64,000 nt of DNA from Spirochaetaceae bacterium (GTDB taxonomy: Bacteria > Spirochaetota > Spirochaetia > DSM-2461), in NCBI GenBank assembly GCA_965224705.1, contig OZ245056.1, positions 1,824,001 to 1,888,000 on the forward strand, read 5' to 3'. The position numbers and the translations under genes were made by a program. The notes beneath the pieces were generated by a model. The model was not told the DNA's origin, made no database searches, and was given only the letters and a program-made list of their open reading frames with translations. Below, piece by piece: positions 4,342 through 62,946 of this stretch (position 1 is the first letter of the stretch; every line of letters begins with the position of its first letter).

Positions 4342-4370
4342 AGTCTACCTGGCGTGGGAACAACCGTCAA
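4342..4370 (-). promoter_or_regulatory. Sigma70-like promoter, probably giving a leaderless mRNA for the SDR-like gene
   Basis: Minus strand reads TTGACG-17 nt-TAGACT-6 nt-ATG with no SD. Confidence 0.6.
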
Positions 4371-7300
4371 CGCAAAAATTTAAGTAAACGATTTAATCGG
4401 AATTCAGAAGCATCGGCGGCTTTGCTCCATTTTTTAAGCAATTTCTTCAACGTTCTGTGAGGTACAGCCTGACCTGAAGCCGTAAGGATCACTGTTCTCA
4501 CAAAAGAATTCCAGCTTTCCAGATTGTACCATAACTCTCCCTCCCAGAAATTCACACCACAAGCCTGCCGCCCTTCATTATCGGCCATCAAAACTCCCAG
4601 AGCCCGGGATGGACTTTTGACAAACTCTATCCAGGAAGGTAGATTCATCGCAACAGATAGATTACGGCATTCAAAGCGACGTCCTACCCAATTATCCAGA
4701 TCCCACTCATACCAGCAGTCGGCCCCTGGAACTGAAAGAATGCTCCAGAGGACAAGGAGCAGAGAGTCATCTTCACTGGAATCTCCAAATTTCCTGGTTA
4801 TAGACCGCCTGAGACTGCGATACGGGAATCTCCACATTTTGGCCGATTCTTCCAGCCGATACTGAATCCTCTCAGCAGCCCGGGCTGAATTTCCAAAGTC
4901 AGTTCTGCAGAATTCTCTTATTTGATCCAGGAGATTCCCAATTTTGTTCTTCTCCAGCCATGGAGTCTGTCGGACTTTAAGGCTTCGAGGCGATTTTTGA
5001 TGATTTTTTCTTGATGCAAGGCGACAAAAACGGAGCGTAGCTGGGCTACGTGAGTATTTTGGCAACACAGCAGCAGGTAAAAAGGGCAAAAATCGAGGCA
5101 TGAGGCGTAAGTCCGACAGGCTCCACGAAAAAGGTCTCTTCCCCATGCGAATTCTGTCGGCCAGTTCATGAATCACATCAGGAGGAAGGAGTTGATCAAG
5201 AGCATTATGCAGGGGGCGAAGTCTTATTTCTTTCAACACTTGTTTAAAATCATGCACCCCGGAACCATTCAAGTCAGCAGCAAGAGTTTCCCACACATCA
5301 TTACTGCTGTCGGGAATGTGAATGTCTAGAAAGGTCTGCCGTCCAAAACCATCGATACTGATATGCAGACCGTTTTTTCTCAGTTCACCAACAGAACGGA
5401 TGTACCAGAGGTCGGCTGTCTGATCTCTGAGAAGAATCCAGTTATCATCTCCTGCATCATCAGGAACAAGGGCTGCAGCCAGAAAGTCGCATTTCATCCC
5501 ATACTCATTTGTATTGACAGGTGAAGCCTCATTAATGGTTCCAATTGCTCTTTCGTAAGAGTTATTCACAATAATCAGGGATCTATCCCTACCAGACACA
5601 TTTGTAAAAGCATAGACAGACTCAATAACGCCATGAGTCCCATGGAGATCGTATAGACGAAACTCGGAAGCTCCAGCAAAAAGCCTCCGTCTGCGCAGCA
5701 GGGGAAATATTTCTCTTTCATGCCGGGCGATGAGTTCATCATCCTGGGATTCATCCCTGAAAGCTTTTACATACTCCATTCCGTATTTTTCAGACAGTCC
5801 TTCAATCTGTCCATGACCAACCATGGGAAGACCGGGAAGAGTGGCAAGAAGTGTACAGACAGTAAAATACCTGTCGTTCTTGCCGAATTGATTCACGGCG
5901 GTTTCTTCATCAGGGTTATTCATGAAATTGACAAATCGCTGAAGAATTCCAGGGTCGAAAGCAAGTGTGTCTTTGATTATGTTACGATATTCTGCATTTT
6001 GCTGATCTCTAAGCATGTTCATGAAGGCAGAATTGTAAACCCTGTGCATTCCGAGAGTTCGAACAAAAAAACCTTCCATCATCCAGAATGCTTCGGCAAG
6101 GAGGAGAGTACCCGGAGCTTCATGGGCGACACGGTCAACAACTTCCCTCCAGAATTCTTTCGGAAGCAGCTTATTGAATTCTTCATCTGTCAGAGGGTGT
6201 TCTGATCGGGAAGAGATGGCCCCCCCGCTTCCGGGCTCTGGAAACCACAAACGGCGAATATGCTTTCGGGCAAGGACCATGGCCGCATCAAAGCGAATGA
6301 CAGGAAAACTGCGGGCAACTTGAATAATATCCTGAATAACCATTTCACGGGCCTCGGGATTGAGGAAGTTGATCTGTGCTGTATCGTTCCAGGGCATGGA
6401 CGTACCATCATTTCCATGATACAGGTACCGCACTTCACCCGTTCTGTTGTTTCTATGCTGAAAAACGACAGCCGCATCACTCTGATTGTAGTAATGATCT
6501 TCCAGGCGGATATCCACCGCCTCATCGCCTGATAGATTGTCACTGAGAAATGAATAGCCCGGATAGGGACATTCTGGAACACTGAGCAGCCTTTCCGGGT
6601 GATGCCTTACCCAATCGGAATCAATTCCCACATGGTTGGGAACCATGTCGCTTGAGAGACGGATTCCCCGCTGCAGTGCCCTGTGTTTGAGGTTGTCCAG
6701 GGCCGCCCATCCCCCAAGTTCTCCAGCGATGTCATATCCAAACAAAGAATAAGCCGAAGCGGCCGCATGAGGATTGCCCATGCGCTGCTTAATCTCCCGA
6801 CTTGCCGGACTTCTTTCCCAGAGGCCAATGAGCCACAGGGCATTGAAACCACGGGAAGCGATGATATCAAGTTCCTCATCAGGAACCTGGTCCAGTCGGG
6901 AAATCTCATACCCACAGGATTCCGTAAGCTGGCTCAGCCAGACCAGTACATTTTTTGCAAGCAGAACAACATTGGGCATCCAGTCATCATCCGGACTGAA
7001 TCGGGCTGTTTCATCCAGGAGTTCAATTCCCGGTCCTTCTGTCGGCCCCGGGCCTGGAAAGCGGATGCGGTTTTCTTCTTCCATCATATCCAGGGCACCT
7101 GTAACTTCCCCGATCCAGTCTCCATGGAGAACTCCCCAATGTTTCAGGATGTACAGCAGTTGATCTCTTACGGAATATGGAGCAACGATGAAGGGCATTT
7201 TGAGAGTTTCAAGCGGAGTTTTATCCACCGGGGCACATCGATCCAGATTTTTGTCAGTTTCTTCAACCAGCATCCAGGATTGTTCATCGTCACCCTCTGG

Positions 7301-7693
7301 ATTCTGGAACAGGTCAACAAAGGATGAAAAGCCAGGATTGATTCGAGCCAGGTTTCTAAGTATCCACTTCTGGAAGTGATCTTCCGGCAGTACAAACGTA
7401 TCCGGCAGCAAATTGAACAGGGTTTTTTCATAGGGCTGGGGATTTTTTTCGAACTTATCCAGCAGTATCTGACAGGCAGTCACGATGTAACCGGCGGCAT
7501 AGACAGTACCGGCGGAAGGGGTTTGTCCTCCCAGTTTTTCAGCATATGCCATGACCAGTTCACGAGCTTCTTTCCTTGAATTAATGACAAGGAAGCCATT
7601 TTGATCAAACCTTTCACGAGGAATGTCAAGTTGATCCTTCGCCGATTGACTGAGAGGTATCAGCGGTCTGGGAGGTTTGGCAGACATATTCAT
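4367..7693 (-). CDS. GH13 alpha-amylase family glycoside hydrolase carrying a 55-aa in-frame repeat insertion
   Basis: DMVPNH, IRFDAAM, LAEAFW and FMNNPDE (GH13 regions I-IV); 1108 aa. Confidence 0.9.
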   Translation of the reverse strand: MNMSAKPPRPLIPLSQSAKDQLDIPRERFDQNGFLVINSRKEARELVMAYAEKLGGQTPSAGTVYAAGYIVTACQILLDKFEKNPQPYEKTLFNLLPDTFVLPEDHFQKWILRNLARINPGFSSFVDLFQNPEGDDEQSWMLVEETDKNLDRCAPVDKTPLETLKMPFIVAPYSVRDQLLYILKHWGVLHGDWIGEVTGALDMMEEENRIRFPGPGPTEGPGIELLDETARFSPDDDWMPNVVLLAKNVLVWLSQLTESCGYEISRLDQVPDEELDIIASRGFNALWLIGLWERSPASREIKQRMGNPHAAASAYSLFGYDIAGELGGWAALDNLKHRALQRGIRLSSDMVPNHVGIDSDWVRHHPERLLSVPECPYPGYSFLSDNLSGDEAVDIRLEDHYYNQSDAAVVFQHRNNRTGEVRYLYHGNDGTSMPWNDTAQINFLNPEAREMVIQDIIQVARSFPVIRFDAAMVLARKHIRRLWFPEPGSGGAISSRSEHPLTDEEFNKLLPKEFWREVVDRVAHEAPGTLLLAEAFWMMEGFFVRTLGMHRVYNSAFMNMLRDQQNAEYRNIIKDTLAFDPGILQRFVNFMNNPDEETAVNQFGKNDRYFTVCTLLATLPGLPMVGHGQIEGLSEKYGMEYVKAFRDESQDDELIARHEREIFPLLRRRRLFAGASEFRLYDLHGTHGVIESVYAFTNVSGRDRSLIIVNNSYERAIGTINEASPVNTNEYGMKCDFLAAALVPDDAGDDNWILLRDQTADLWYIRSVGELRKNGLHISIDGFGRQTFLDIHIPDSSNDVWETLAADLNGSGVHDFKQVLKEIRLRPLHNALDQLLPPDVIHELADRIRMGKRPFSWSLSDLRLMPRFLPFLPAAVLPKYSRSPATLRFCRLASRKNHQKSPRSLKVRQTPWLEKNKIGNLLDQIREFCRTDFGNSARAAERIQYRLEESAKMWRFPYRSLRRSITRKFGDSSEDDSLLLVLWSILSVPGADCWYEWDLDNWVGRRFECRNLSVAMNLPSWIEFVKSPSRALGVLMADNEGRQACGVNFWEGELWYNLESWNSFVRTVILTASGQAVPHRTLKKLLKKWSKAADASEFRLNRLLKFLR
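4963..5123 (-). mobile_element. 161-bp palindromic MITE/RPE-like element inside the amylase CDS
   Basis: TIRs GAGTCTGTCGGACTT (4963-4977) and AAGTCCGACAGGCTC (5109-5123), flanked by CATG/CACG. Near-identical to the reverse complement of 62661-62946 apart from an internal module. Confidence 0.92.
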
Positions 7694-62660: not shown

Positions 62661-62946
62661 GAGTCTGTCGGACTTCCGCCTCACGGCTCGATTTTTGCCC
62701 TTCTCTCCAGAAGCAAGCCTCTTGCTTGCTTCTTCCGAGCCGCCTTCGTTCGTTTTCGCCGCCATCCGTGGCGGCTTTTCCTCGCTATCGCTCGGCACTC
62801 TCTCAGGATGCGAGTTTATAGACTCGCATACCCTGCTGCTGCGTTGCCAAAATACTCACGTAGCCCAGCTACGCTCCGTTTTTGTCGCCTTGCATCAGGC
62901 AAAAATCATCAAAAATCGCCTCGAAGCCTTAAAGTCCGACAGACTC
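62661..62946 (+). mobile_element. 286-bp palindromic MITE/RPE-like element (intergenic, long form)
   Basis: Perfect 15-bp TIRs GAGTCTGTCGGACTT and AAGTCCGACAGACTC, with a TAAG direct repeat on both sides (62657-62660, 62947-62950). Confidence 0.92.

Follow-up and report, generated by a model that had tools for sequence, protein, structure and literature searches.

In-frame fusions of RPE, ERIC, YPAL, QMITE2, and REP repeats to bacterial genes are covered in five reports (PMC10969869, PMC2229807, PMC3184786, PMC5896051, and PMC3733652). For YPAL/RU-2, QMITE2, and BRE, published work describes MITE frames fused to chromosomal genes, with YPAL adding 56 aa (PMC2229807, PMC5896051, and PMC3184786). 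The hosts and ends of these elements differ from those of the element studied here, a comparison made by description. RPE-1, as portrayed in PMC10969869, PMC2229807, and PMC3733652, resembles our element in length (~150 bp), in its hairpin, in its in-frame insertion within genes, and in a common central core. However, its peptide is unrelated to that of our element, and we identify a candidate transposase, whereas a 2007 review treats transposases that mobilize such Rickettsia repeats as hypothetical only (PMC2229807).

MITEPye1 of Paracoccus yeei, a 159-bp IS1182-type MITE with 4-bp repeats (PMC11578231), is similar in other respects, namely, a length of ~160 bp, 4-bp direct repeats, IS1182-like ends, a long hairpin, and no transposase. 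It occurs in one to three intergenic copies per chromosome and has no open reading frames (ORFs), whereas the family described here occupies 141 sites in three sizes and has two open frames and in-frame insertions. A spirochaete cluster with ~145 MITEs per genome has also been reported, along with an intergenic location for 90% of bacterial MITEs (PMC11602168). There are published precedents for IS1182-type MITEs, for MITE-rich spirochaetes, and for in-frame MITE fusions. An initial sequence-only reading of this DNA was not aware of such a repeat family in its lineage. No description of the family itself was found in the mainly open-access literature searched, but MITE-rich spirochaetes and IS1182-type MITEs are already on record (PMC11602168 and PMC11578231). 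The available part of PMC1273637 contained nothing relevant to the element.

The element is a MITE, as seen from its TIRs, its lack of a transposase, its 4-bp duplications, its filled and empty sites, and its many copies. We consider it likely that this non-autonomous MITE was moved by a resident IS1182 transposase and that it is tolerated in a GH13 (alpha-amylase family) gene as 55 stop-free codons in a predicted loop far from the catalytic motifs. Within the window (the whole stretch of 64,000 nucleotides that was analyzed), the 161-bp element occupies positions 4963 to 5123 and is read on the minus strand, through one of the two frames that are open in it. It has 15-bp TIRs with one mismatch and is flanked by CATG (4959 to 4962, plus strand) and CACG (5124 to 5127, plus strand), the second target-site copy differing from the first by one change. 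Together with one target copy, it makes up 165 bases, or 55 residues (residues 858 to 912 of the GH13 protein), with 12 K/R, 1 D/E, and 7 P. The orthologue in a sister species of the same genus (G009; 90% identical protein) shows a single 165-nt gap and one CATG, identical to the first target copy, and the peptide is present in none of the 12 aligned genus orthologues, among which the insertion site lies within a stretch of variable length. The sequence-only reading is thus borne out on several points: the 161-bp element with its near-duplicated 4 bp and 55 stop-free codons, the continuous protein sequence left when it is removed, and the location C-terminal to the catalytic motifs (residues 349 to 597).

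The GH13 copy differs from the family consensus at seven positions, five of them amino acid changing, and from its nearest copies at five positions, with alleles of its own. The element folds as one long hairpin (z = -6.8; none of 200 shuffles folded as well). Rfam gave no matches in the 64-kb window at gathering scores, Pfam gave none for the 55-aa insert, and NCBIfam gave none for any of the 15 stop-free segments of the element. Just upstream of the insert, at positions 5124 to 5138, 7 of 15 bases differ from the sister species, well over the background of the gene.

The host gene (positions 4367 to 7693, minus strand) is an ORF that stays open throughout its 1108 aa. It has conserved GH13 motifs at residues 349, 466, 532, and 590 and a C-terminal helical region at residues 816 to 1107, and it scores 27.3 bits against the Pfam Alpha-amylase cut-off of 22. 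Residues D469, E534, and D595, which we take to be the catalytic Asp, Glu, and Asp of GH13, are invariant in all 13 aligned sequences. Where the gene had been called an amylase, the Pfam match and the invariant residues uphold the GH13 family, but not the specific enzyme, as no NCBIfam equivalog cut-off was reached; a PDB sequence search returned no hits, and a fold search returned none with an E value of <0.001. In the AlphaFold model, the insert lies with low confidence between two confidently predicted helices (residues 838 to 849 and 915 to 929), a low confidence that is expected from the absent alignment depth alone, and the catalytic domain is poorly modeled (mean pLDDT, 61.7).

The GH13 gene looks intact despite the insertion, judging from its sequence. 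The main alternative is that the insertion crippled or silenced the gene, leaving a young pseudogene that has yet to acquire stops. The insertion is indeed young, given the five differences from its nearest copies, compared with a dS of ~0.29 between the gene and its orthologue in the sister species. The dN/dS against that orthologue, a pairwise ratio that mostly records time preceding the insertion, is 0.18 overall, 0.11 in the catalytic part, and 0.25 after the insert, this last value being at the high end and above the 90th percentile of the genome baseline (0.225; median, 0.13; 1208 pairs). In contigs of run X3, 11 single-base differences from the window are listed over the gene, 5 nonsynonymous and 6 silent, and a contig of run X1, which belongs to another study, is one base short at position 6711, a frameshift if real. 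However, that missing base falls in a homopolymer of five C in a single contig of depth 6, and at this position both X3 and the sister species agree with the window. There are no stops in the 1108 codons of the window or among the differences listed for X3, the catalytic motifs are invariant, and changes are not in excess on the branch of the host genome (13 versus 10 after the insert and 27 versus 35 before it). Two RNA-library runs yielded short pieces of the gene at a depth of 2 to 5 that cross no junction, one of the runs having pieces on both sides of the insert; DNA carry-over is possible. The sequence-only reading had named an unexpressed pseudogene as a case against itself, and the stop-free frame, the invariant motifs, and the overall dN/dS speak against gene decay. 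We consider a pseudogene unlikely.

In the genome that holds the window (G000), there are 149 end-to-end TIR units at 141 sites, and no TIR pairs occurred in three shuffled genomes. The main size classes are 53 bp (14 units), 160 to 162 bp (90 units), and 286 to 287 bp (17 units). A 4-bp duplication is exact in 70 of the 149 pairs and has one mismatch in 44 more, whereas the control lengths of 3, 5, 6, 7, and 8 bp gave 0, 1, 0, 0, and 0 pairs; the flank consensus is C-T/C-A-G. On both flanks, 57 of the 141 sites map to the sister species, where 21 are exactly empty and 3 are also filled, and at 10 of the 21 exact empty sites the four-mer there equals one of the flanks in G000. The sister species has 11 TIR pairs. 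The element family is narrowly distributed: of 38 genomes of the bacterial family, 10 gave DNA matches, all in one genus; of 301 genomes of the class, 3 had the exact end motif; and JGI metagenome contigs contained no exact match to one 31-letter element pattern. FlaA exceeded its cut-off three times in the host genome and in none of 14 control genomes. Together with the 141 sites and the empty sites, this agrees with the earlier view that the palindromic family is mobile and resides in a spirochaete. That view had also placed a second copy of the same element at positions 62661 to 62946 (plus strand) of the window. The unit there is intergenic and has an exact TAAG duplication, as claimed, but it is a longer, 286-bp family member with an extra internal module of ~125 bp, having 115 bp in common with the 161-bp form at 97% identity and 42 bp at 90%.

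Several further features of the family deserve mention. Genome-wide, mismatched duplications are skewed, with 16 CTAG/CTGG-type pairs versus 4 of the reverse, and CTAG itself is depleted to 0.28 of expectation; Vsr repair was considered as the source of the mismatched duplications and rejected, as no Vsr was found. A 927-bp unit (G000:C1:1401080-1402006), which has the ends of the family and is flanked by a CCAG duplication, contains a 196-codon frame that does not encode a transposase, possibly a captured cargo. Two proteins from other assemblies (P0007 and P0012) carry near-N-terminal in-frame inserts and have no match in G000 or the sister species, so other taxa may also carry the element.

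An autonomous element with matching ends is present in the same genome. It is an intact IS1182 unit of 1605 bp (G000:C1:1526965-1528569; L033:966-2570) that is bounded by CTAG on both sides, has the same ends as the MITE, and encodes a 470-aa transposase scoring 324 bits against the NF033551 cut-off of 270. The MITE has only the terminal 16 to 19 bases in common with this unit: in the GH13 copy, 18 of 19 nucleotides are identical to the IS1182 left end (positions 4963 to 4981, plus strand) and 15 of 16 to the right end (positions 5108 to 5123, plus strand). Duplication length and target also agree, with CTAG/CTAG for IS1182 and the C-T/C-A-G consensus for the MITE; ISPse1 is listed with 4-bp repeats in PMC3281130. 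There is just one intact IS1182 copy in G000, which is the only one of 14 genus genomes with a full-length IS1182 transposase. One other genome (G006) has a short transposase fragment at 75%, and two (G009 and G012) have only relatives at 26 to 30%, with other ends. Between the ends of an internally deleted IS1182 copy (L308; G000:C1:2205955-2207981) lies an unrelated gene that has short coiled-coil repeats. The 90% cluster of the transposase includes two records labelled Candidatus Thiodiazotropha endolucinida on contigs of 1 to 3 kb, which may reflect transfer between co-living bacteria or mis-binning.

We infer that the MITE is mobilized by the IS1182 transposase, which would recognize the common 16- to 19-bp ends and insert at CTAG-like sites. 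With element length plus duplication being a multiple of three and two of the six frames open, about one in three intragenic hits would read through by chance. Selection would then purge nearly all genic hits, sparing those in loops, signal-peptide n-regions, and dispensable genes. The peptide added to the GH13 protein is most likely a neutral passenger, and its substitutions, with five of seven differences changing an amino acid, are as a neutral passenger would show.

How the family relates to genes at large was assessed with a purpose-written simple ORF caller and sites of <400 bp. Of 138 such sites, no more than 5 fall deep within conserved genes, whereas 70 would be expected if target-like words are used and 25 if CTAG is the only target. 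Even these five are an upper bound, as the sites at 705463 and 2571485 look like excision artefacts (a TAG stop is removed) and that at 2384411 precedes a probable start codon. In-frame candidates number 7 among the 141 sites, compared with the "nearly half" of RPEs in ORFs given in PMC10969869. The sequence-only reading had the family creating new protein sequence; in-frame insertion does occur, but the strong depletion from genes and the small number of candidates do not fit a scale like that of the RPEs.

Three of the seven candidates are internal, in the GH13 gene, a gene for a Mutator-family transposase, and a serine hydrolase gene (a 53-bp copy, with no clean gap seen in a 39% homologue). 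The other four lie just past the likely start of genes for LemA, DegT (two tandem copies), DUF192 (two copies), and an S41 peptidase (a 53-bp copy); translation could possibly restart downstream of the insert in these genes. For LemA, a ribosome site and an ATG upstream of the insert are conserved in the sister species and in G003. The DegT start is conserved in G001 and G012, both empty. At that site (L302; G000:C1:705463-705788), the same CTAG after the start holds two copies in G000 and one in the sister species (G009:C1:2371455-2371615). A single old common insertion is not supported, since the copy in the sister species has no rare change in common with those in G000, and the CTAG may be a re-used hotspot.

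Elsewhere, 28 database proteins carry the insert peptide, many of them element-derived ORFs. An internal insert is also seen in one AAA-ATPase/PD-(D/E)XK protein from other assemblies, of which contiguous empty homologues occur in the sister species. In another assembly, an in-frame insert apparently splits the helix-turn-helix of a HicB-like antitoxin (P0006), the fold of which is probably broken.

Has the family itself adapted to life in proteins, its length and open frames being selected for this, as argued for RPEs? With 4 bp added, the two commonest sizes come to 57 and 165 bp, both divisible by three; the same holds for the 287-bp form with its duplication, and in-frame candidates occur in other assemblies in addition to the seven in G000. 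Two of six frames are free of stops in the consensus, both of them on the strand that is read in the GH13 gene, and they stay open in 69 and 67 of the 71 copies of 161 bp, compared with 50 expected for the former in a naive simulation. However, when distinct alleles are counted (68 of the 71 copies), there is no sign of selection against stops (1 versus 2.9 expected and 2 versus 2.1 expected). The 10 copies of the 286-bp form do not preserve the frame, stops close four of the six frames, and at ~95% of sites the element is not fused in frame to a gene. We find adaptation to genic life rather improbable, and chance read-through of a MITE moved by IS1182, followed by selection at the gene, remains our preferred account.

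The inner part of the element is a hairpin module of ~80 bp (positions 5002 to 5084, minus strand) that is not in the IS1182 element and contains a core at positions 5028 to 5048; the 53-bp form of the family does not have this core. The sequence-only reading had noted a likeness between this core and that of RPE-1, and the core was indeed found in 7 of 11 loci matching the RPE1 profile, on their non-coding strand. Could the element be a true relative of Rickettsia RPE-1, moved by the same machinery? Similar size, a long hairpin, and in-frame use would fit, as would ~35 bp of core at 74 to 75% identity to the 11 RPE1 loci. However, the likeness ends after those ~35 bp, with a BLASTN E value of 0.13 at best, the element ends differ from RPE-1 ends, and RPE-1 translates the opposite strand. 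Further, the RPE1 profile (TIGR01045) gave no matches in G000 at E values of up to 10, whereas it gave 47 and 10 matches in two of three control genomes. RPE-1 membership is largely refuted, and we regard kinship of this sort as very improbable.

The core is also widespread. Its pattern occurs at no fewer than 124 loci in GTDB genomes (L160 to L283), and alpha-, gamma-, and delta-proteobacteria, Nitrospira, Paenibacillus, and Bacteroidales are among the matches listed. Among these listed matches, the free pair of the core is complementary in 127 of 130, and in 95 of 118 none of 12 shuffles folds as well as the core arms. An ERIC pattern made from two published primers found 27 viral-contig loci, 15 with primer flanks. 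These loci share outer motifs, picked after the data had been viewed, with the at least 124 core loci, and the central stem of ERIC is related to the core, with paired changes. As far as sequence comparison goes, the core is neither RPE-specific nor diagnostic, as it is also in ERIC and in hairpin repeats of many phyla. ERIC/IRU elements are like ours in the related central stem and similar outer motifs, and in-frame fusions have been reported for them (PMC2229807). In contrast, they are 127 bp long with TA ends and short TIRs (primers as given in PMC11734338), whereas our element has 161 bp, IS1182 ends, and 4-bp CTAG-like targets. Membership in ERIC/IRU was rejected on length, ends, and duplications, only the core being alike.

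The same 80-bp inner module is found in a second MITE family with other ends (L307; G000:C1:526600-527050), and no autonomous partner of this family was found. Its two ends occur 220 and 222 times in the sister species, compared with 15 and 12 times in G000, which indicates that the two species had different bursts. The element thus works like an RPE at the GH13 site, but it belongs to the IS1182-type MITEs.

The contigs of the two studies both contain the insert. The junction at 5123 is bridged, with 80 and 56 letters inside the element, but at the 4963 junction only 27 and 29 letters lie inside, below the 31-letter bar for bridging. Read support is thus partial, and no contig crosses the element as a whole. 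That misassembly of a high-copy repeat placed the element in the gene is nevertheless scarcely credible, because both studies have contigs that reach into the element from either side, the empty form appears at no joint, and the copy has private alleles.

A broader reading, which we put forward only tentatively and hold to be doubtful, is that this is an early RPE-like system with its engine intact. IS1182 ends would have captured an ancient core common to RPE-1, ERIC, and many phyla, and the 55-codon unit would be translated in the GH13 enzyme, LemA, DegT, DUF192, and the AAA-nuclease. If this is true, the invasion of proteins and the job of the core could be reproduced experimentally, using a transposase that is known. 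Repeat-derived protein sequence is known mainly from Rickettsia, and here the filled site, the empty site, a candidate transposase, and a genome-wide denominator come together in one genome pair. That denominator indicates that in-frame survival is a rare by-product. More puzzling is the inner hairpin core, which persists, with paired changes, in different phyla and in elements whose ends are unrelated.
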